From IMG/VR virus record IMGVR_UViG_3300028909_000001: DNA of 64,000 nt. One strand, written 5' to 3'. This document shows, one piece after another, positions 43,732 through 57,864 of this stretch (position 1 is the stretch's first letter; the number at the start of each line of letters is the position of its first letter). The position numbers and the translations under genes were made by a program. The notes under the pieces are model-generated. The model saw nothing but the letters and a program-made list of their open reading frames with translations. It searched no databases and was not told where the DNA came from. This DNA comes from a virus (lineage: Duplodnaviria > Caudoviricetes).

Positions 43732-44278
43732 AAATTCGAATACTGCTTTAATAGAGGAATTTTGCTATGAATTTGCTAAACAATGTAATTATGTGCTTAC
43801 TAAGAGTTTAAAAAGCCAGTTATATAATCCAGTTAGTAAAGCATTGGCTATTAGTAGAGAGTTAGAGGTAGAGCCAAAAGTCTATGTAGCAGCTCATGTC
43901 TATTTCTCTCCTTTATTAAAAGGTTATACTAAACTGACTCCAAATCAGCTGTATACTAGAGATTCCAAGACTTATGTTGAAGAATATCTTAAATTTGACA
44001 GACATATAGATAGAGAGTTTGAGACTCAATGTAGAATATTGGCTGAATGCCTGGATAATGGCTGGAAAGAAAGATTAGCTTTATTAAATTCTACTTTAGA
44101 CTTTTTACCCTGGTTTAGAGTATTAATATCTACGGAAAGAGATGAAGAAATTATTAGAGTATATAGTGATGTAGCTACTAATATGTTAAGAAATGATAAA
44201 CCTCTGCTAAACTATCTTAAGACAATTAAATCAGATAGTGGTCAGGGATTGGATTTTTCAAGGTTACCTAGATTATGA
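43721..44278 (+). CDS. Hypothetical protein between primase and helicase
   Basis: 185-aa helical ORF, translationally coupled to its neighbours. Confidence 0.65.
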   Translation: MYIENSNTALIEEFCYEFAKQCNYVLTKSLKSQLYNPVSKALAISRELEVEPKVYVAAHVYFSPLLKGYTKLTPNQLYTRDSKTYVEEYLKFDRHIDREFETQCRILAECLDNGWKERLALLNSTLDFLPWFRVLISTERDEEIIRVYSDVATNMLRNDKPLLNYLKTIKSDSGQGLDFSRLPRL

Positions 44279-46686
44279 ATGATACAAATTTTACTGAGCC
44301 TTTAACCGATGCTGATTTTTCGGAATTGTTGATTAGGCATATGCTATTATCTCCGGAAGTGAGTAATAAAGCTAAACAATTGAATATTGTAGGAGATGAT
44401 TTAGTATTGGATGATACTTATGGTAATCAAGTATATAAAGAGCTGGTAAATATCATTAATAGTATAGATGTTAGACCAGTGCCAGCTAATACATTGTTGG
44501 ATGGCTTAAAACATAAATTTGAGGATGGAACTTTAATTGATAGTTTAAAAGATAATACACTTGAACTATTTGAGTACTTCTATAATGCAGATAGGTTGTT
44601 GGAGAGTCCTGAGTTCTTTGATAGTAGATTGTTACCTTTCCTAAAGAATAGGAGGGCACAGAAGCTTATTAATAAGTATAGGGATGATGTTCATACCTTA
44701 ACCAGTGAATTAAATAAACTCAATTTAGATTTGGCTGGCGATTCTCCTATGAGCAGGCCTAGGGTGATGAATCCTTTTAGTAGTATCATATTCAAGACTA
44801 AGAGTAGTATGATAGGTACAGGTTTAAGTAAGCTGGATGAGAAGTTGGATGGTGGACTATTATCTAGTGAATATGCTATGTTGCTAGGATTTTCAGGTGG
44901 GGGTAAATGTCATGGAAAAGGTACTAAAATATTAATGTATGACGGTTCAATAAAGAATGTTGAAGATATTAAAGTGGGTGAATTACTAATGGGTAATGAT
45001 TCAACATCTAGAGAAGTACTTAGTTTGGCTAGGGGTAGTGAGCAAATGTATAAGGTAATTCCTGTTAAGGGGGAACCTTGGACTTGTAATGAATCTCATA
45101 TCCTTAGTTTAGTATGTAATACTCAATGTGGTTTTGGTTATCAATATGGTAAGGGAAATATAGTTAATATGACAGTTAAGGATTATTGTGCTCTAATAAG
45201 AACTAAGAAAGATTGTCTTAAATTATATCGAATTGGTGTTGATTATCCTGTTAAACCTTTGAATATGGACCCGTATATCTTCGGTTGTTGGATAGGAGAT
45301 GGAACACGAGCAGCACCGAAGATTACAAATACTGATCCAGAAATTATTAGTGTAATGATGGAATGGGCTAAAATCAATAAATATAAGGTCAGACAGTATG
45401 ATATTACTTATTGTTTTAGTAGAAAACCTGAAATAAATATATTTCGTAATGAAATAAAAAGAGCTAATGGTAATAATCAAAAGAGAATTCCTAGTGATTA
45501 TTTGATTAACTCTGAAAGTAATAGGTTGCAGTTATTAGCTGGTATTATAGATACTGATGGATATCTACATCATAACTTTTATGAAGTTGTAACTAAGTAT
45601 GAAGGTTTGAGTCAAGATATTCTTTATTTAGCTAGAAGTTTAGGGTTCGCAGCATATAGTTATCCTAAAATAGCTACTATGAAAAGAGAGGATGGATCAA
45701 TATACAGATGTAAAGTATATAGAGTTAATATAAGTGGACACGTAAATAAAATTCCATGTAAAGTTATTAGAAAGCGGGCTGGGATAAGACAGCAGATTAA
45801 AGATGTATTACATGTTGGTTTTACTGTTGAGCCTATAAACGATAGAGATTATTATGGTTTTGAATTATCAGGTAATCATCTTTATCTTTTGGGGGATTTT
45901 ACAGTAACACATAATACAGCTGTAGGTACTAATATGGTGGGTATATCTGCGGAAATGGGTAGAAAGGCGGTTTATATATCTTGTGAAGAGCATGAAGATG
46001 ATTTAAGCCAAAGATTCTATTCCAGAGTATTTAGAATACCATATAGACAATTAAGACAAGGTAGTGCTAATATAGAATTGGAATCAAAGTTTAATGAAGA
46101 ATTAACTACTGAGAAAATAAAATTTTTAAAAGATAATCTCTGTTTAATGGGTTTAAAGGGGATTGATGGTGCTATAACTCCTAATCTGCTATATGAATTG
46201 TTAAAACAAAACTATGAAGAAACTGGTTTTATACCAGAACTAGTAATGCTAGATCAATTACAATTCATAACTCCAGATGCACCTATAAGAAAGAATATGC
46301 AGACTTATGAGATTGAAGGTATGACTGCAGCTGAGTTAGACCAATTATCACATAAACAAATAGGTGGTAAAGGATTTGTATTGTGGGTACAGCATCAAGC
46401 TAAAGGCAAGACTAGGGCATATTTTACTATAGATGAAATTCAAGGTTATAAAGCAATAGTAAATAAGCCAGACTTGGTTTTAGGTGTAGGCAGAGCTGGT
46501 GATAAAAGTGATGAGATAAACTTGTTTCCTTTAAAAATAAGACATTCAGCTGACTTTAAAATAACTCTTAAGACTGAATTTGAATATATGACAGTAACAT
46601 CCACGTTAGTTACTAATGACTTACCATATCAAAATTCTACCATGACAGAAGTAGATCGTACTGGTATTAGACCAGTCACTTATTAA
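44275..46686 (+). CDS. dnaB: Replicative DnaB/gp41-like helicase containing an intein
   Basis: LDEKLDGGL, GFSGGGK^T Walker A, YISCEE, MLDQLQFI and VQHQ. Confidence 0.9.
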   Translation: MNDTNFTEPLTDADFSELLIRHMLLSPEVSNKAKQLNIVGDDLVLDDTYGNQVYKELVNIINSIDVRPVPANTLLDGLKHKFEDGTLIDSLKDNTLELFEYFYNADRLLESPEFFDSRLLPFLKNRRAQKLINKYRDDVHTLTSELNKLNLDLAGDSPMSRPRVMNPFSSIIFKTKSSMIGTGLSKLDEKLDGGLLSSEYAMLLGFSGGGKCHGKGTKILMYDGSIKNVEDIKVGELLMGNDSTSREVLSLARGSEQMYKVIPVKGEPWTCNESHILSLVCNTQCGFGYQYGKGNIVNMTVKDYCALIRTKKDCLKLYRIGVDYPVKPLNMDPYIFGCWIGDGTRAAPKITNTDPEIISVMMEWAKINKYKVRQYDITYCFSRKPEINIFRNEIKRANGNNQKRIPSDYLINSESNRLQLLAGIIDTDGYLHHNFYEVVTKYEGLSQDILYLARSLGFAAYSYPKIATMKREDGSIYRCKVYRVNISGHVNKIPCKVIRKRAGIRQQIKDVLHVGFTVEPINDRDYYGFELSGNHLYLLGDFTVTHNTAVGTNMVGISAEMGRKAVYISCEEHEDDLSQRFYSRVFRIPYRQLRQGSANIELESKFNEELTTEKIKFLKDNLCLMGLKGIDGAITPNLLYELLKQNYEETGFIPELVMLDQLQFITPDAPIRKNMQTYEIEGMTAAELDQLSHKQIGGKGFVLWVQHQAKGKTRAYFTIDEIQGYKAIVNKPDLVLGVGRAGDKSDEINLFPLKIRHSADFKITLKTEFEYMTVTSTLVTNDLPYQNSTMTEVDRTGIRPVTY
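44908..45915 (+). mobile_element. Intein (336 aa) with a LAGLIDADG endonuclease domain
   Basis: Starts CHGKGTKILMYDG and ends VTHN followed by T. Contains PYIFGCWIGDG and LAGIIDTDG. Confidence 0.95.
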
Positions 46687-46691
46687 ATTTT

Positions 46692-47111
46692 ATGGGAGAA
46701 ACACTTAATGAAGATACCTTATACTATTTCTTATGCCCATTTAAGGATAGGTACTATACGTTATATTTAGGCTGGTTGAATAAGATACTAATTGAAGCTT
46801 TTAGGAAGTTGGGTGAGGAAGAGGGACATATTTATATACAGAGTGAATTTGAACAACATACTTTCATTAATTATATAGACCAGCCCCTTTTCCTCATCGA
46901 ATTTGATAAAGAAGGCATTGAGAAGTATTATAGTGATGACCATGAATTAGAATTAGAGCCGGAAGAAGGAGAGGTTTATAAAGATAATGAACCTGACACT
47001 ATTAATTATCCAGCTTACTTTACTAAAGGTATTGAATCACTTCTAGATTATAAATTAGGCAAACATTTATATGCTAATGTAGAAGGAGAATGGATACAGA
47101 TAAAATTATGA
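46692..47111 (+). CDS. Hypothetical acidic protein
   Basis: 139-aa ORF between helicase and polymerase. Confidence 0.65.
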   Translation: MGETLNEDTLYYFLCPFKDRYYTLYLGWLNKILIEAFRKLGEEEGHIYIQSEFEQHTFINYIDQPLFLIEFDKEGIEKYYSDDHELELEPEEGEVYKDNEPDTINYPAYFTKGIESLLDYKLGKHLYANVEGEWIQIKL

Positions 47112-49846
47112 TGACAATTGATGAATTTTTAACAGAATATAATACATATAGAGTAGCTGGAGCTTCATTTATACAACCTTCAGGAGATCACGAAGCCAAG
47201 TTGATGTTAGTTCTTAGTTATCCTAGTTATGATGCTCTACAAACTGGTAACTTATTAGCTGGGGATAATGGTGATGAACTTAAAGCAGCCCTGGATTTGG
47301 CCGGCTTTCAAGAATCTGATTATTATTTAACTGCTATGGTTAAATTTGATGTAGGTTCAGCCGGAAAGCCTACTAAACAGATGATTGAACAATGTAGCGG
47401 TGTACTGGATTTTGAGATTAAAACAGTTAAACCTAGATTGATCCTTACTTTAGGAGCTGAGCCGTTTAAAAGGATTAAGAAAGAGAAAAGCAAGGTTACT
47501 AGTTATTTAGGCAATATTATAGATTGTCCTTATGACTGCAAGCTGTTACCTAACTATTCTCCTGGAATGATAGTTGGCCAGGACCCTACACTAAGGTCTG
47601 CATTTAGAGAGGTGTTTACTCTAGCTAAAAGATTTATAGAAGATAAGCTGGATTATACTAGATATGATAAACTAGTAGTAGATGACCCTGAATTAAGTAA
47701 AGTTATTATACAAGAATATATAGATAAGAAGGCATTCCTAGTAGGTTATGATGGAGAATGGAAGGGGAAGAAGATGACTGATGATGAGGTCATGTATACT
47801 TTTCAGTATTCTTGTGAACCTAATGTAGCTATTGTATTGGATATTTCAAAAGATGGTGTAACTGAGAATAAAGAATTACTTGATACAGTAAAGCCATTAT
47901 TAGAACATCCACAAGTACAAAGAATGGGTTGGAATATTAGAGTTGATGATGAAAGGCTTAAATTGAGAGGGTTTAATTTATCTGATGACACTCTATTCTT
48001 TGATGGTATGAAAGCTTGTGGATTCTTAGATAGTAGGTATCCTAAAGGTCTAGAAACTGGTATTAAGTACTTCACTAACTATAAACCTTATTATAAAGAG
48101 ATGCCAGATCTCCTCAAAAAGCATGGGTTGAAGTGGGAAGAGTTAGCCCAATTAAAGTTATTAGAGCCTGATTTCTTTTATGAGTATTGTGGTGGTGATG
48201 CAGTAGCTCATAGGACTGCTTGTTTAGCTATGAAGGAAAGTATGGATAAGTTACCAGAGAAAGTAAGAACTTACTTTTATAATACATATCTACCTTTAAC
48301 TCATTATTTCATGGATTTGGAGTTAGCTGGGATACCTATAGATTTGGTGAAAATGGAAGAAATGACTAATCAATATGTATCTAAATATGAAGAACTTAAA
48401 GATATATTAAAAACTAGATTAACTGGTATCTTCCCAGATTTTAATCCAGCTAGTGCACCTCAAAAGAAGAAGTTATTATATCAAGTACTCGGTTTAGCCC
48501 CAGCCTTTTATACTAAAAAAGGAAAGATTAAACCCAGAGCTTGGTACGATCAACAAAAAGCAGGTACAAAGAAGCATTATTCTCCTAGTACTAATAGTAA
48601 ATCATTAAGTACTATATGTTTCGATCTAGAGAAGGAATTGGAAAAACCACAACCAGATAACTTAATACAGGATAAATATATTATAGTTAAGAATCTATTA
48701 GATTTAACTAGAGTAGGAGTATTTGCTACTAAGTTCTTGTGTAAAACTGGTACTGAGTTTGAAGAAATAGATGAAGCAGATCTGGAAGGTGATGCTGACG
48801 AGGATGCCAAAAAGAGTTCATATTGGGCGGCTATTTGTAAAGATGGCAAGATTCACCCAAGTTTTTATGAATGCTTGGATAACTTTAGAAGTAGTAGCAA
48901 GCCTAATGTACAGAATCCAGCTTCCAAAGTGTTAAGTAATATCCCTAATATATTTGTGCCTGGTTATAGTTTAATGAGTAAAGATGACCAAAAGAAGAAT
49001 TATCATCTAATACCAAGTAATCTTAGACATATATTCTATTCCGGGGACCCTGATTGGTATTGGGCTGAGATCGACATAGCCAGTGCCGACCTCGGAATAT
49101 TAGCATTCCTAAGTAAAGACCCTAAATATATAAATGACATTCTTAGTGGTGGATTTCATTTAACCAAAGCTAGAGAGTATTTCCAAGACCCAAATGTAAC
49201 TAAAAACGATTATTCTAAATATGTGTCAGCAAAGTCTATTACATTTAGAGTATCATACACTTCAGAACTATTAGCTGCCTCAATGCCTATTCAAGCAGAG
49301 ATTTATGCAGAAAGTGGCATTTATCTACCTATTCAACGTATCGAATATGCTTTGAAGACATGGGAGCAATATACACAATATATGGAGTTTAGGAAGCAAT
49401 GTATGCAGCAAGTAGAAGAATATAAGTATATAGAGAATGCTAGAGGTTTAAAATACCATTTCGAAGATAGTGATGACTTTAGAATATTGGCTGGTTGGAA
49501 GAATGAAAGTTTGGCTTTTCCACCTGCTAGTGAATTAGCATTGTTTATGTGGGATATATGTGTAACTATGAAACGTTATCTAGTTAAAGAAGGGGTCTGG
49601 ATGAAGTGGATTAAACCAGTAAATAGTGTTCATGATGCTGCATATTATCTTGTACATAAAGATGTTATGAAAGATAATTGGTTTCCTGAAGTTTGTAAGA
49701 ACTACTTTACTAAAGAATGTAAAATAGCTACTGGTGATACTTTAGGAATGGAAATGTCAGTAGGAGATAGATGGAAATGTAAGGAGGAGGCTTTTCATGG
49801 GGAGACGGTCTGGGACTTCAATAATAAATGCTGGAATTGGAAATAA
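47090..49846 (+). CDS. polA: Family A DNA polymerase with N-terminal UDG-fold and 3'-5' exonuclease domains
   Basis: N-terminal PTxxMIxxC..LxxEIxxVKPRLILTLG (family-4 UDG fold), exonuclease YDGE and YCGGDA, RSSSKPNVQN, and motifs A (EIDIASADL), B (KSITF...Y) and C (VHDA). Confidence 0.88.
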   Translation: MDTDKIMMTIDEFLTEYNTYRVAGASFIQPSGDHEAKLMLVLSYPSYDALQTGNLLAGDNGDELKAALDLAGFQESDYYLTAMVKFDVGSAGKPTKQMIEQCSGVLDFEIKTVKPRLILTLGAEPFKRIKKEKSKVTSYLGNIIDCPYDCKLLPNYSPGMIVGQDPTLRSAFREVFTLAKRFIEDKLDYTRYDKLVVDDPELSKVIIQEYIDKKAFLVGYDGEWKGKKMTDDEVMYTFQYSCEPNVAIVLDISKDGVTENKELLDTVKPLLEHPQVQRMGWNIRVDDERLKLRGFNLSDDTLFFDGMKACGFLDSRYPKGLETGIKYFTNYKPYYKEMPDLLKKHGLKWEELAQLKLLEPDFFYEYCGGDAVAHRTACLAMKESMDKLPEKVRTYFYNTYLPLTHYFMDLELAGIPIDLVKMEEMTNQYVSKYEELKDILKTRLTGIFPDFNPASAPQKKKLLYQVLGLAPAFYTKKGKIKPRAWYDQQKAGTKKHYSPSTNSKSLSTICFDLEKELEKPQPDNLIQDKYIIVKNLLDLTRVGVFATKFLCKTGTEFEEIDEADLEGDADEDAKKSSYWAAICKDGKIHPSFYECLDNFRSSSKPNVQNPASKVLSNIPNIFVPGYSLMSKDDQKKNYHLIPSNLRHIFYSGDPDWYWAEIDIASADLGILAFLSKDPKYINDILSGGFHLTKAREYFQDPNVTKNDYSKYVSAKSITFRVSYTSELLAASMPIQAEIYAESGIYLPIQRIEYALKTWEQYTQYMEFRKQCMQQVEEYKYIENARGLKYHFEDSDDFRILAGWKNESLAFPPASELALFMWDICVTMKRYLVKEGVWMKWIKPVNSVHDAAYYLVHKDVMKDNWFPEVCKNYFTKECKIATGDTLGMEMSVGDRWKCKEEAFHGETVWDFNNKCWNWK

Positions 49847-53660: not shown

Positions 53661-53689
53661 GTGACCTGTTTATCGTGTCGTGATACAAT
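53661..53689 (+). promoter_or_regulatory. Sigma70-like promoter heading the Ubl-E1-JAB operon
   Basis: GTGACC-N17-TACAAT upstream of ATG 53736. Confidence 0.5.
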
Positions 53690-53735
53690 TAATCAATAAA
53701 CAGGATTAACTGACACTAACTAAACACTAATTATT

Positions 53736-54038
53736 ATGAACAAGACTGATACTAAACCTATTATCGTTAAAATCAAGATTCTGGACCAAACTGGACACAC
53801 TACTTTGGAACAGGCTATTGATGATGCAATCAAGACCGCTTTTACCTATAATTTTACAAATGGTAAGAACATTAATGTACGTGGTGAAAACGGAGTAGTT
53901 CCTTTTGAACTATTCGCCAAGGATATTAATGATACGGAAGGATTGCTCAGTGATACGATTAGACTCCATAAAGCTCTCACTCAATTCGAAGACCCTTTAA
54001 TTTTCATTACTGGTGCTTTGGCTGGTGGAGCGAACTAA
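53736..54038 (+). CDS. Ubiquitin-like (beta-grasp, ThiS/MoaD-type) protein with a di-Gly capped by two residues
   Basis: The C-terminus LIFITGALAGG-AN resembles ThiS/MoaD/SAMP ends. N-terminal strand-strand-helix pattern IIVKIKILD / GHTTLE / IDDAIKTAF. Same operon as the E1 and JAB genes. Confidence 0.7.
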   Translation: MNKTDTKPIIVKIKILDQTGHTTLEQAIDDAIKTAFTYNFTNGKNINVRGENGVVPFELFAKDINDTEGLLSDTIRLHKALTQFEDPLIFITGALAGGAN

Positions 54039-54051
54039 ACGCGGAACCCTC

Positions 54052-54082
54052 GGAGCAAATCTAATACTAGTAGGTTTGCTCC
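54052..54082 (+). terminator. Hairpin between the Ubl gene and the downstream genes
   Basis: GGAGCAAAT...GTTTGCTCC. Confidence 0.6.
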
Positions 54083-54097
54083 ACTTAATTTAAACCT

Positions 54098-56083
54098 ATG
54101 TCTTTTATCTCACCTGAAAACTTTCAATATTACGCTAATTACTTTGCTCAACTAACAAAAGCCAAATTAGACTATGAAATAAATAGATCTGAAAAATATG
54201 TTAGTGATGATCAAGGGAATTCAGCATATCAAGTAACCTTTCATCCAATTTTTAAGAATATTACGACTTTAGACCAATTAGCCTCAGTTTGGTCAGCTGC
54301 TCCCAACCCTATACCTGTAGATGCTATTAGAGGTGGGGTTATAACTGATGAGTTGCTTAGAAATCCCAACTGTTGCATAGTTAGTGGAAGTGTGTATAAA
54401 CAAAACATTACTTCAATTAAGTTTTATGCTAATAGTGTGTTTGATTCAACTAATTGTAATGTAAAAATTTACTTAATAAACAATACTGTCCTTGAAAGAG
54501 TGGTAAATGCTAGGACTATCAGAGTATGTAGTTTGGGCAGTCTTTATAACAATGGTAAGATTGTTTTCTGTGGTGATGAAAACACTCCCTGGTTTAATTA
54601 TATAGATAAAGGGCATATCATAATATTTGCTTCTGCTGGAGAACAGATGGAGGGTAATAGCCGTACATTTGTCACAGATGCTATAACTTTGGATATGAAC
54701 TATATAATTGCAGCAGCTTCCATCTATCCTCCCGCCATAGATGATATATTACAGAACAAAGCATTTATTCCTAGTAAGGATAGTAGACTAGCTTTGTTAA
54801 GGGTGGAGAAAGCTATTCCAGCCAGATATCGAGAAGCTTATTTAGCTAGAAAAGCCAAGATACAGGAAGACTTTAGCAAAAATACCACTAATGTAATGAT
54901 TGGTAAATTGACTAGGAAAGAAAGTCCGTTTATTGAGCTTAACGGTATCAAGATAACTGCTACCAAAGCTGATTATATAGCTGGTCATGTAACAATAGAA
55001 GCCAATAATCTAGCTGAAGTTGTCTTTGCTAAACTAAATCCCAATGAAACGGAATGGGATATATTCACATTGATAAACATATATACTGATTGGGTTAATG
55101 AACAATTCAGAAACTTGCCACTTAATGCTGATGGGTCTGGCTGTTCAGCAGCCAAATCGTTCTCATTTAAAATCAATGATATTCCGTTAAAGGTGAGTTG
55201 TTTTACTGAGAATACTAGGAGGGCGGTAAATGATCACTTAATCAATGTAGATGAGCTGAGTGCTGTTCTTAAAAGAGCTAGTTGTTATCAAGCAGTTGAA
55301 GGCGAGGATAATGTAAAGAACTTTGACAAGTTTATTTCTAATGTATCCAGGCATTCATTGAAGATTCGTGATATCTGGTCTAATGGTATGCCAGTTAAAA
55401 CTGTTTACTTAGAGAGTGACAGGAATAGTTACGGTAAACAGGCTACTATGAAGCATCCTAAGCTAAGGTTTATTCATAAAGATAAGAAGGGTTTCTATCT
55501 AATAGTGAATCAATATGATAGTAAGAATAAGTCTAAGATCATTTCGACTAATGAGTATAGAATAGGTAAATTTGCAGCATTCATTAAAAGGGTGGAACAG
55601 GCGAACAGAAGTAATTATATGAATTATGTTCATGATTATAGTCGAAATTCTGAAGGTTACTATCTACCACTATCAGGAACTAACAAATGTGCAACTGAAC
55701 TATTAATTATTTTAGCTGAATTTGCTGGTGATATTACTGAAGAGGATAAGAAGGCATTGATAGGTTCCATTAATTATGAGCTGAGTGAAGCTGAAAAGAA
55801 ATCTGAAGAATTGTTGAAAGAAGCTTGTCAACTAACTAACTCTAAAGAAGGTACTAGAGACGGCAAGGTTGGCTATATAGTACCAGGAAAGATGAGAACT
55901 TATTTCGTTGAAGCTGAAGGTACCCATAAAGTTTACGATAATGACCCCAAAGCTACTAATCCTTATTTCTGTGTAGTTAATAAAGGAGATATGGGTGTAG
56001 GTAGAGATGCATTAGTAGCTCGTATATTCGCGCTACATAATGACCAGATGATGGCTAAACAAATTCACACATTACAAAGATAA
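54098..56083 (+). CDS. Large hypothetical protein (661 aa) in the Ubl-JAB-E1 operon
   Basis: No full-length family recognised. The C-terminus has a PGKMRTY...YFCVV...DALVARIFALHND module. Confidence 0.8.
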   Translation: MSFISPENFQYYANYFAQLTKAKLDYEINRSEKYVSDDQGNSAYQVTFHPIFKNITTLDQLASVWSAAPNPIPVDAIRGGVITDELLRNPNCCIVSGSVYKQNITSIKFYANSVFDSTNCNVKIYLINNTVLERVVNARTIRVCSLGSLYNNGKIVFCGDENTPWFNYIDKGHIIIFASAGEQMEGNSRTFVTDAITLDMNYIIAAASIYPPAIDDILQNKAFIPSKDSRLALLRVEKAIPARYREAYLARKAKIQEDFSKNTTNVMIGKLTRKESPFIELNGIKITATKADYIAGHVTIEANNLAEVVFAKLNPNETEWDIFTLINIYTDWVNEQFRNLPLNADGSGCSAAKSFSFKINDIPLKVSCFTENTRRAVNDHLINVDELSAVLKRASCYQAVEGEDNVKNFDKFISNVSRHSLKIRDIWSNGMPVKTVYLESDRNSYGKQATMKHPKLRFIHKDKKGFYLIVNQYDSKNKSKIISTNEYRIGKFAAFIKRVEQANRSNYMNYVHDYSRNSEGYYLPLSGTNKCATELLIILAEFAGDITEEDKKALIGSINYELSEAEKKSEELLKEACQLTNSKEGTRDGKVGYIVPGKMRTYFVEAEGTHKVYDNDPKATNPYFCVVNKGDMGVGRDALVARIFALHNDQMMAKQIHTLQR

Positions 56084-56089
56084 AAAAAT

Positions 56090-56488
56090 ATGACTCGTGA
56101 AGATTTAACCTTCGCGACCTGTTATCAACTAGCACAACTTATTTCTGAAGACTGGGAAAACCAGCCTTCAGAAGTAAAGCATGCTATTTATCTATTAAAA
56201 CCAATAGATGAACCAGGTGAATTATTTTGGGGAGTTCCTCCAATAGTAAATCCACTTAAGTTAGCAGCGTCAGAAAGGGAACCAGACTCCATAAGATTGA
56301 ATAGAAAACTATATGAACTAGAAGTAGTTTCAAAGTGTTTTAAACTAATAATTGAACATTCTGATCAATGGCAAACACAAAATTCTGACGACCTAAAAAA
56401 GGAAATCATTTCAAGAGTAAAAGAATATGAAGAAGAAATCATTAGCATCTCTAAACCTGTGCCTTTTACATGCCATATCCAAATATGA
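56090..56488 (+). CDS. Hypothetical protein in the Ubl-JAB-E1 operon
   Basis: 132-aa helical ORF overlapping the JAB gene. Confidence 0.65.
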   Translation: MTREDLTFATCYQLAQLISEDWENQPSEVKHAIYLLKPIDEPGELFWGVPPIVNPLKLAASEREPDSIRLNRKLYELEVVSKCFKLIIEHSDQWQTQNSDDLKKEIISRVKEYEEEIISISKPVPFTCHIQI

Positions 56489-56924
56489 TGATGATTTATT
56501 AGAAGAACAAGGTGGATTTATATTAAAAGAAGTTGGTGTGGATAACTATGAATTTGTACCAGTTACTAATGCCTTAACCGGTACGCATGCCGCTAAAGGT
56601 TTGTATATAGCTGAAACAAGTGAATTTAATAATAAGGTTGCAGCTAGAACATTTGATGATACCTGGACTGTCTTTGCTAGTTATCATACTCATCCTTTAG
56701 GTATGCGAGCATTACCTAGCAATACTGATGTCTCAAAATTGTTCACTAATTTCCCGGTTAACTTTATCTATGCTCCTGATAGAGAGTTGAATAGATTTGA
56801 TTATAACCCAAACTATGTTAAAGATGGTTCTGATAGTAAGTGGATTTTTACTAATGTAAGTAACTTTAATGGCTTTAAAGGAGATAATAAAATTGAAAAA
56901 TGGATTGAATCTGAAAATTTATGA
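56427..56924 (+). CDS. JAB/MPN+ (JAMM) metalloprotease
   Basis: Catalytic E in EQGGFIL and a complete JAMM motif YHTHP-x6-SNTD (HxH-x7-S-x2-D). Confidence 0.88.
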   Translation: MKKKSLASLNLCLLHAISKYDDDLLEEQGGFILKEVGVDNYEFVPVTNALTGTHAAKGLYIAETSEFNNKVAARTFDDTWTVFASYHTHPLGMRALPSNTDVSKLFTNFPVNFIYAPDRELNRFDYNPNYVKDGSDSKWIFTNVSNFNGFKGDNKIEKWIESENL

Positions 56925-57202
56925 ATACTGAAACTAATACTGAAACTAAACCTGAAACTAATACTGAAACTAAACCTGTTATAGAAATAGATCCTTCATC
57001 AGTTGGGCATTTTTGTACTGTTAAATATGAGGATGAAGAAGAACCTGTTGATGGAATTATAGTTGAATATAATGATCCATGGTTTCTAGGTGATCCAACC
57101 GTAGCAGTTTTTCTTTTAGATGCGTATATAATTGATGCCTCAGTTGAATTGGACCAGATAATTGAAATAAGAGGGCTTGTAAAATCTGATAAATCTAAAT
57201 GA
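56921..57202 (+). CDS. Small acidic hypothetical protein (SH3/Tudor-like core, N-terminal ETNTETKP repeats)
   Basis: A 24-nt tandem repeat at the start, followed by VGHFCTVKY...VDGIIVE. Confidence 0.6.
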   Translation: MNTETNTETKPETNTETKPVIEIDPSSVGHFCTVKYEDEEEPVDGIIVEYNDPWFLGDPTVAVFLLDAYIIDASVELDQIIEIRGLVKSDKSK

Positions 57203-57810
57203 AATCTAAAGTAAAAATAGATAGGATAGGAATTGCAGGACAAGGCGGAATTGGGGCTTTTTTAACTAGATTCTTGTTTGATTATGGAGCTAAACGTAAT
57301 CAATTTGACTTTAGTGGTTGTACAGTTGATACCTTCGATATCGATATCGTCGACGCCTCTAATCTTCTTCATCAAGATTTTACAGATGATGATATAGGTA
57401 GATACAAAGCTGACATTGTGGCTGAAAAGTGCTTAAATCTTGTAAATCCTAATAAAAGGTTTATGGAGGTTAAGGATTTTGAGAACTATGATGTTATTTT
57501 TAGCGCTGTAGATTCCATGTCCTTCAGGTCTTCACTCTACAAGTATGGATTCGATCACCCTAGTTTGATGTGGATTGATGGAAGATGTAGTTCTAGACAG
57601 GTAGGACTATATCACTCTAAATTGAGTAGAACGGTATTGGAAAAGGCAATTAATGATAGTAAAGAACGTACTGGATGTTTGTTGGAATATGACAAGAAAA
57701 ATAAAACTTCTCATGTAACTCCTCAAATAATCGCTGCTATGATGACTCAAACTTTTCTCAATTATATTAGAGATGAATTACAGCTTGACCCTGTTGTTCT
57801 TCTTTTGTAA
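57199..57810 (+). CDS. ThiF/MoeB/E1-like adenylyltransferase
   Basis: IGIAGQGGIG nucleotide loop, DIDIVDASNLLHQ, GRYKAD, SAVDS, WIDGR and a C-terminal TGC. Confidence 0.92.
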   Translation: MKSKVKIDRIGIAGQGGIGAFLTRFLFDYGAKRNQFDFSGCTVDTFDIDIVDASNLLHQDFTDDDIGRYKADIVAEKCLNLVNPNKRFMEVKDFENYDVIFSAVDSMSFRSSLYKYGFDHPSLMWIDGRCSSRQVGLYHSKLSRTVLEKAINDSKERTGCLLEYDKKNKTSHVTPQIIAAMMTQTFLNYIRDELQLDPVVLLL

Positions 57811-57832
57811 TATGAGATACGAAAATTAAAGC

Positions 57833-57864
57833 GAGGGTTGGCATATAATCTATACCAACCCTTC
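57833..57864 (+). terminator. Hairpin closing the Ubl-E1-JAB operon
   Basis: GAGGGTTGG...CCAACCCTT. Confidence 0.65.

Follow-up and report, generated by a model that had tools for sequence, protein, structure and literature searches.

Positions 53,661 to 57,864 of a 64,000-nucleotide stretch of DNA from a virus of the Caudoviricetes (Duplodnaviria; IMG/VR record IMGVR_UViG_3300028909_000001), hereafter the window, hold a gene cassette that may encode a protein conjugation pathway of the ubiquitination type. The original prediction, made from the DNA letters, had recognized three of its genes, those of a small protein with a Gly-Gly near the C-terminus, a JAB protease and a ThiF/E1-like adenylating enzyme, and had proposed that the small protein is trimmed, adenylated and transferred to protein targets. 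All three genes are found, on the plus strand between 53736 and 57810. Genes for proteins of 661, 132 and 93 amino acids (aa), which had been left unassigned, also lie within the unit (Table 1). No E2 had been seen in the first reading; the product of the 661-aa gene ends in a domain that is probably E2-like and contains an invariant Cys.

Table 1. Features of the cassette, with positions numbered from the first letter of the window
Feature	Position	Strand	Remarks
Gly-Gly protein, candidate tag and E1 substrate	53736..54038	+	100 aa, ends ...IFITGALAGG-AN; G97-G98 invariant, tail variable
12-bp stem-loop directly 3' of the Gly-Gly gene	54052..54082	+	equivalent in 11 of 12 related loci
661-aa protein, constant partner of the E1	54098..56083	+	no known family; invariant Cys396 and Cys625
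C-terminal domain of the 661-aa protein, residues 565-661	55790..56080	+	probable UBC/E2-like fold; Cys625 codon 55970-55972
132-aa accessory protein	56090..56488	+	mostly helical, without invariant Cys; clade-1 loci only
JAB/JAMM metallopeptidase	56427..56924	+	165 aa; Prok-JAB match, JAMM residues invariant
ORF (open reading frame) in variable slot	56921..57202	+	93 aa; not conserved in relatives
Minimal ThiF/E1-like adenylating enzyme	57199..57810	+	203 aa; PF00899; G14xGGxG19, D105, C160
Palindromic 12-bp hairpin closing the unit	57834..57862	not assigned	

Conservation of the gene set

The gene set was compared in 18 distinct loci of uncultured phages, namely the window, L001, L003, L005-L011, L014, L016, L020, L021, L024, L025 and two contigs with gene tables only. 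In all 18 loci, each with a homologue of the 661-aa gene, a ThiF gene follows downstream at a distance of no more than about 4 kb, and a JAB gene is present in 17. A small ORF that ends in Gly-Gly, or up to four residues beyond it, adjoins in each of the 15 loci with a readable flank. Among these genes, the E1 is accompanied most constantly by that of the 661-aa protein. The co-occurrence spans two clades that differ in gene order. In clade 1 the tag gene is followed by the genes of the 661-aa, a 193-aa and the 132-aa protein, the JAB, a variable ORF that may be missing, and the E1; in clade 2 the order is a gene of about 130 aa, the 661-aa-type gene (690-790 aa), the tag, the JAB if present, and the E1. 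The view that the Gly-Gly protein, the JAB and the E1 form one functional unit in phages is thus borne out by their co-conservation, and the set recurs outside the window, where the original prediction had suggested that it be sought.

The cassette is not covered by the collections of known families. PHROGs, NCBIfam and PADLOC contained nothing useful for the tag, the 661-aa, 132-aa and 93-aa proteins, the 329-aa protein encoded downstream of the cassette, or the 193-aa protein of the relatives. Searches of 50,697 phage records with the operon (blastn) and with the 661-aa protein (tblastn) yielded no match, and with the E1 tblastn retrieved only two distant crAss-type ThiF genes with 24% identity. 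Relatives of the E1 were not found among 185,579 prokaryote genomes in a scan whose search patterns restricted its reach. Searches of the literature did not reveal an account of the cassette.

A group of genes in a cultured phage deserves separate mention. The replication module of the crAss-like Bacteroides phage Kolpuevirus 'frurule' (OQ198718.1, 2313-6561; L012) encodes a 261-aa protein ending in FGG-WAK, a 388-aa protein without assignment, a 426-aa Prok-JAB protein (25.1 bits) and a 338-aa ThiF protein (E 9e-20). The ThiF gene adjoins that of the Prok-JAB protein, and the gene for the FGG-WAK protein lies two genes upstream. By analogy, this group may be a similar tagging module.

The Gly-Gly protein, the JAB peptidase and the E1

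The 100-aa protein was found as originally described, and its Gly-Gly is invariant in 23 homologues of 58-79% identity, in which the one or two residues that follow vary freely. Proteins of more distant loci carry tails of a single residue (V or C) or of QPAA, and 0-4 variable residues follow the Gly-Gly across the loci. A protein identical to the 100-aa protein is on record for contigs as long as 218 kb. The small proteins of clade 2 are 74-85 aa long and end in ...LVGG-stop, ...LTGGQ-stop or ...MTGG-stop. One hidden Markov model (HMM) does not link them to those of clade 1; by eye, the proteins of both clades have in common an N-terminal strand followed by a Gly-His-Thr/Asp-Glu turn. With the beta-grasp modifiers ThiS, MoaD and ubiquitin the 100-aa protein shares a C-terminal Gly-Gly that is exposed or can be exposed.

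Every locus in which residues follow the Gly-Gly also carries a JAB. The sole locus without a JAB, L009, in which 22 kb were searched with the JAB HMM, encodes a small protein ending in ...TGG-stop. This distribution fits the proposal that the extension is removed before adenylation. A strict rule that a JAB occurs only when the tag has an extension is ruled out by L016, in which the small protein ends at the Gly-Gly and the JAB is still present. Trimming is therefore not the only role of the JAB, which probably deconjugates as well.

The predicted fold of the small protein does not correspond to what was expected of a ubiquitin-like (Ubl) protein. An AlphaFold2 (AF2) model based on the alignment of the 23 sequences (predicted local distance difference test, pLDDT, 73) shows the order strand-helix-strand-strand-helix-strand, followed by the Gly-Gly tail. 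The model was compared with PDB and AFDB by Foldseek and with 48,161 chains by VIA-align. The best matches were little-finger domains of Y-family polymerases and designed alpha/beta sandwiches, none of them strong, and PB1 domains, which are beta-grasp folds, appeared only far down the match lists. An independent model from the ESM Atlas (pLDDT 0.66) matched DUF4342, the 3H domain and IMS_C with TM scores of 0.50-0.57. A beta-grasp is therefore not supported by either model, so that, by the standard set in the original prediction itself, the designation Ubl given to the tag lacks support in the structural sense. The models are of moderate confidence, however, and a highly conserved stretch at residues 15-23 has no place in the fold assignment, so that such a fold may still apply. 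A complex predicted from two E1 copies and residues 1-98 of the Gly-Gly protein scored 0.00, a value that was obtained without controls and speaks neither for nor against binding. A weak Pfam match to iREC (PF22563; E 1.3e-3; 5 of 23 members) was treated as a chance result, because it lies below the cut-off, the models contain no receiver fold and no literature was found.

Both hairpins of the unit are real. In 11 of 12 loci the stem-loop behind the tag gene starts no more than a few bases away from the stop codon, with z-values of -3.3 to -6.2; its sequence is not conserved and a U-rich run often follows. It could act as a partial terminator or stabilize the 3' end of the mRNA. Its conservation fits a tag made in stoichiometric excess over its enzymes, as had been suggested for the hairpin from the window. 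The promoter assumed at the start of the unit did not find equal support: 12 sigma-70-like hexamers were counted versus 22 expected in shuffled sequence, and because they are fewer than in shuffled sequence a promoter cannot be judged. No Shine-Dalgarno-like sequence precedes the tag gene (53720-53735) or the 661-aa gene (54083-54097), which may point to a host with weak use of such sequences.

The JAB protein matches Prok-JAB (PF14464) with 23.6 bits (E 5e-5), just below the cut-off of 25 bits; the copies of L016 and L020 reach 48 bits. The JAMM motif claimed for it is intact, with E26/E27, H87-x-H89, S98 and D101 invariant in comparison with six relatives, but the spacer reads HxH-x8-S-x2-D instead of x7, and x10 in L006.

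The E1 belongs to Pfam ThiF (PF00899), which it matches with 38.9 bits versus a cut-off of 28.1 (E 7e-10) over profile positions 18-202 of 238. In NCBIfam the best match is likewise ThiF, with 33.7 bits, far under the cut-off. G14xGGxG19, K70, D105 and C160 are invariant with six relatives, in the motifs GQGGIG, AVDS and ERTGC(160)LL, so that the glycine loop and the Cys noted earlier stand. The glycine loop and the catalytic Asp are also present in the E1s of clade 2. Both JAMM and Rossmann catalytic residues are intact, judged by these motifs. The Cys is conserved in both clades, in the contexts ERTGC, EEGSC, EDGSC and KNTSC. C160 lies 55 residues past D105 and, by this spacing, is counted as the crossover-loop Cys, which in MoeB and ThiF lies about 57 residues past the catalytic Asp. 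The motif given earlier as SNLxxQ reads NLLHQ in clade 1, with an invariant His, and NLxYQ in clade 2. In the SNLxRQ motif of MoeB/ThiF this site is occupied by a canonical Arg (equivalent to R73 of MoeB). Replacement of the Arg in the nucleotide motif is a departure within the ThiF family and not an exclusion from it.

The 661-aa partner and the setting of the cassette

Pfam, like the collections mentioned above, contains no match to the 661-aa protein. Its family comprises 506 representatives at 50% clustering (E <= 1e-3), mostly of 600-790 aa, across which the C-terminal domain is the best-conserved part. In an alignment of 27 members, with identities as low as 23%, no Cys other than C396 and C625 is invariant.

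For the whole protein, AF2 gave a model with a pLDDT of 84. Its last 110 residues form a long helix, four short strands, a loop bearing C625 and further helices, and by these elements the order of a UBC domain is matched. In the model, strand 612-614 precedes C625 and helix 636-647 follows it, which puts this residue in the loop behind the fourth strand. When the model was compared by VIA-align with all PDB cluster representatives, residues 565-661 matched the ubiquitin E2 variant (UEV) domains of Vps23 (4.5) and Tsg101 (4.3), the ELF domain of FANCL (4.1), Citrobacter BubB (9eav_D, residues 240-360; 3.9), Ubc9 (3.7), Ubc8 (3.5) and the UEV domain of BRCC45 (3.3). The matched part of BubB includes its catalytic Ser333 (PMC11601596). 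By two routes the top structural matches of the C-terminal domain were E2, UEV and BubB folds. On the strength of these models the domain is probably E2-like, an assignment we favor with some reserve.

Other searches with the 661-aa model added little. Foldseek against PDB returned no significant match, and a match to chimallin at rank 14 was discarded for its TM score of 0.1. The AFDB clusters contained only uncharacterised relatives, structure searches of the ESM Atlas yielded nothing informative, and weak DUF7737 matches on the C-terminal domain allowed no interpretation.

The proteins of 132 and 193 aa are accessory; both are absent from clade 2 and from the P0050 contig. The gene of about 193 aa (e.g. 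L001:12369-12950) lies between those of the 661-aa and 132-aa proteins in 12 clade-1 loci for which DNA is available and in a further contig with a gene table only; its product has an invariant FH..RH motif and no Cys. By tblastn it is absent from the window, where it would sit between 56083 and 56090, and from the whole virus record, which is linear, 151 kb long and 69% complete according to CheckV. The genes of the 132-aa protein and the JAB overlap by 62 nt (56427-56488) in different frames, and by 56 nt in L006. The length of the overlap is identical in at least five related loci, in which both frames are conserved; this suggests dual coding or tight translational coupling. Overlaps of 4 nt (ATGA) link the genes of the JAB, the 93-aa protein and the E1. 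The 93-aa ORF, which opens with repeats of the type TETNTETKPE, has no BLAST match in any related locus, and its slot is occupied there by an unrelated ORF of about 60-75 aa or is empty. In clade 2, the 661-aa-type gene is always preceded by that of a protein of about 120-147 aa with the motif FxISD...GLWL...LIGK (L009:9558-10001, L013:2141-2506, L016:4500-4895, L020:4631-5014).

The cassette sits inside a block of DNA replication and recombination genes of a large uncultured phage, with which it is presumably expressed. The GC content is about 34%, and the setting includes genes for a terminase, a class II ribonucleotide reductase, an SMC-like ATPase, a helicase and a fusion of a uracil-DNA glycosylase (UDG) domain with a family A polymerase. 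The fusion gene (47090-49846) and a GP88-family gene (PF17338; 51930-52664), the upstream neighbour of the cassette, occur upstream of it in nearly all clade-1 loci. In L006, methylase genes stand between GP88 and the cassette, so that GP88 probably does not belong to the module. Downstream follow the unassigned 329-aa gene and a gene for a RecA/UvsX recombinase. An 803-aa ORF (44275-46686) with Hint and homing-endonuclease domains occupies the position of the DnaB-type helicase gene of related loci, and its domains suggest that it contains an intein.

A putative conjugation pathway, its rivals and its relatives

We propose, with a probability of about 0.5, that the cassette encodes a phage-borne conjugation pathway of the ubiquitination type with an E1, an E2-like protein, a JAB peptidase and a tag that does not have the ubiquitin fold. 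The 100-aa protein would be produced in excess, with the conserved hairpin after its gene as a contributing element, and the JAB would strip the 1-4 residues past the Gly-Gly. The minimal E1 would adenylate the exposed carboxylate of Gly98 and then hold it as a thioester on Cys160, from where the tag would move to Cys625 in the E2-like domain at the C-terminus of the 661-aa protein. Acceptors would be picked by the bulky N-terminal part of that protein, the tag would become attached to a lysine in a protein of host or phage, and the JAB could also undo the linkage. What the analysis establishes are the genes with their motifs, their joint conservation and the association of tail extensions with a JAB; we infer each of the chemical steps, the function of the 661-aa protein as an E2 and that there are proteins to which the tag is joined. 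A more specific version is tentative, with odds that we place somewhat below even. It holds that large lytic phages possess a pathway of their own in which a ferredoxin-like or little-finger-like tag carries a ubiquitin-style Gly-Gly, the E2 is the C-terminal domain of a substrate selector of 660-790 aa, and replication or defence proteins of host or phage are tagged during infection.

Several points weigh against the proposed pathway. Profile searches of Pfam and PDB up to E 10 detected no E2 family in the 661-aa protein, and no HPN motif precedes C625. Both the AF2 and the ESM model of the tag appear little-finger/3H-like and not beta-grasp. In the E1 sequences, the canonical Arg is replaced by His in clade 1 and by Tyr in clade 2, and an Arg-finger helix at the N-terminus, as in MoeB-type enzymes, seems to be lacking. 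Finally, the pathway is putative, as are its targets and any E3.

The first of these points would also suit an E2-independent conjugation as in the archaeal SAMP/UbaA system, in which the E1 alone would activate and transfer the tag, and the 661-aa protein, instead of carrying it as an enzyme, would serve as its principal target, as a scaffold or as an adaptor. Archaea and Thermus possess systems in which an E1 works with a JAMM peptidase but no E2, the E2 fold at the C-terminus of the 661-aa protein is weakly supported and comes without an E2 signal at the sequence level, and the strict co-occurrence of the 661-aa protein with the E1 would suit a dedicated substrate as well as an enzyme. However, it is hard to see why a passive target would keep a Cys invariant in a loop of a domain that is compact and highly conserved, the best-conserved part of the 506 family representatives, and we consider this alternative unlikely. 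Somewhat less probable again is a sulfur carrier, in which the JAB would trim, the E1 would adenylate and a C-terminal thiocarboxylate would give sulfur to a nucleotide, a tRNA or a cofactor. A Gly-Gly protein with a two-residue extension next to a JAMM protease and an E1 is the pattern of QbsE/QbsD/QbsC and of CysO/Mec+, comparable to TtuB/TtuC, ThiF is the best NCBIfam match of the E1, the record is only 69% complete, and sulfur could come from host enzymes. Against this stand the E1, which has no rhodanese domain, the predicted fold of the tag, which is not that of a ThiS/MoaD beta-grasp, and the Cys-bearing 661-aa partner, for which the scheme has no part. Moreover, no gene for a rhodanese (PF00581), a cysteine desulfurase (PF00266) or a PP-loop thiolase (PF01171) was found in the 151-kb record, and scans with Pfam, PHROG and NCBIfam revealed no sulfur-using fold among the neighbouring genes, in agreement with the earlier remark that no thiamine, MoCo or cysteine-synthase genes are adjacent.

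The location of the module in a lytic phage, among genes presumed to be early or middle, would also suit counter-defence without tagging, in which the JAB strips conjugates of the host CBASS (cyclic oligonucleotide-based antiphage signalling system) or Bil type and the Gly-Gly protein and the E1 serve as decoys or competitors for host E1 and E2. The JAB is kept even where trimming is not needed, as in L016, and phage JABs resembling Cap3 have been noted in the CBASS literature. Yet a decoy could do without an E1 of its own in which the catalytic residues are intact and a Cys is conserved, and without a 661-aa partner that keeps a Cys invariant, and PADLOC shows no similarity of the JAB to those of Cap3 or Bil, which makes this explanation quite improbable. 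We give marginally less credit to a C-terminal activation in the manner of MccB or PaaA, in which the 661-aa protein would join the adenylated C-terminus to a nucleotide, a DNA base, an amine or a lipid, or a peptide natural product would be formed. Such chemistry is also performed by ThiF-like enzymes (review: PMC12596934), the module lies among genes of DNA metabolism and most of the 661-aa protein has no known fold. But the substrate would be a folded domain of 74-100 aa and not a short peptide, the 203-aa E1 is too short to contain the extra N-terminal peptide-binding domain of MccB, and a thioester relay accounts better for the conserved pair of Cys residues.

The relationship of the proposed conjugation pathway to known systems is one of parts rather than of the whole. 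Archaeal SAMP/UbaA/HvJAMM1, Thermus TtuB/TtuC, QbsE/QbsD/QbsC and CysO/Mec+ employ beta-grasp tags linked to sulfur metabolism. With them the cassette has in common a small protein with a C-terminal Gly-Gly, a short extension that in some is removed by a JAMM protease, and an E1 of MoeB/ThiF size with a crossover-loop Cys. It differs from them in the lack of sulfur genes in the searches made, in the predicted fold of the tag and in the additional Cys-bearing 661-aa partner. The mobile-element-borne PRTRC cassette contributes, with its ThiF family TIGR03736, the second-best NCBIfam match of the E1, but with 32.8 bits versus a cut-off of 144.75; the other seven proteins scanned matched nothing in NCBIfam, including its PRTRC models, and the cassette is not counted as a PRTRC member. 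The tail-assembly proteins I and K of phage lambda likewise combine a Ubl domain of the Gly-Gly type with a JAB, but they belong to a tail module and lack an E1 (PMC1779556), whereas the present cassette lies in a replication module and encodes one.

The bacterial Bil (BilABCD) and Bub operons are ubiquitination-like anti-phage systems (PMC10557695, PMC11601596). They are encoded by the host, whereas the present cassette is encoded by lytic phages; compared with theirs, the tag has a predicted fold other than the beta-grasp, the E1 is of only 203 aa and the E2-like domain forms the tail of a 661-aa protein. Bub uses oxyesters of Tyr and Ser, whereas the cassette conserves Cys. In type II CBASS, Cap2, an E1-E2 fusion, activates the C-terminus of a cGAS/DncV-like nucleotidyltransferase (CD-NTase), which does not have a ubiquitin fold, and Cap3 is the JAB (PMC10097602). 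E1/E2 pairs are therefore able to act on a non-ubiquitin fold. The cassette resembles type II CBASS in its set of E1, E2-like protein and JAB and in a candidate protein substrate predicted to lack the ubiquitin fold, but it contains no CD-NTase or effector, its E1 and E2-like proteins are encoded by separate genes and its setting is a phage genome. No PADLOC model matches the tag, the JAB or the 661-aa protein, and the PADLOC E1-E2 matches are weak (<=19 bits, best E 9e-5) and fall on the Rossmann region of the E1. The cassette would work in the manner of Bil, Bub or Cap2-Cap3, but by these models it is a member of none. Five features set it apart from known conjugation systems: it is phage-borne, its E1 has only 203 aa, another residue stands in place of the canonical Arg, the E2-like domain forms the end of a giant protein, and for the tag a fold other than the beta-grasp is predicted.

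Archaeal SAMPylation is one form of ubiquitination-like conjugation in prokaryotes. Others have been described for the anti-phage defence of the host, in type II CBASS, Bil and Bub (PMC10097602, PMC10557695, PMC11601596). If the proposed pathway is correct, the same chemistry would be placed in the hands of the virus, as a viral counterpart of Bil, Bub and CBASS. It would be the second case, after the CD-NTases, of E1/E2 chemistry on a protein that is not a beta-grasp, and since the tag is not predicted to have this fold, the range of E1/E2 substrates would be wider. The 661-aa protein would represent a new family of very large E2-bearing proteins with more than 500 cluster representatives. 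The JAB, ThiF and Gly-Gly-tailed group of Kolpuevirus may provide an experimentally tractable relative in a cultured phage. For the phages themselves, the uses of such a pathway could be takeover of the host, regulation of replication and recombination proteins, or counter-defence.

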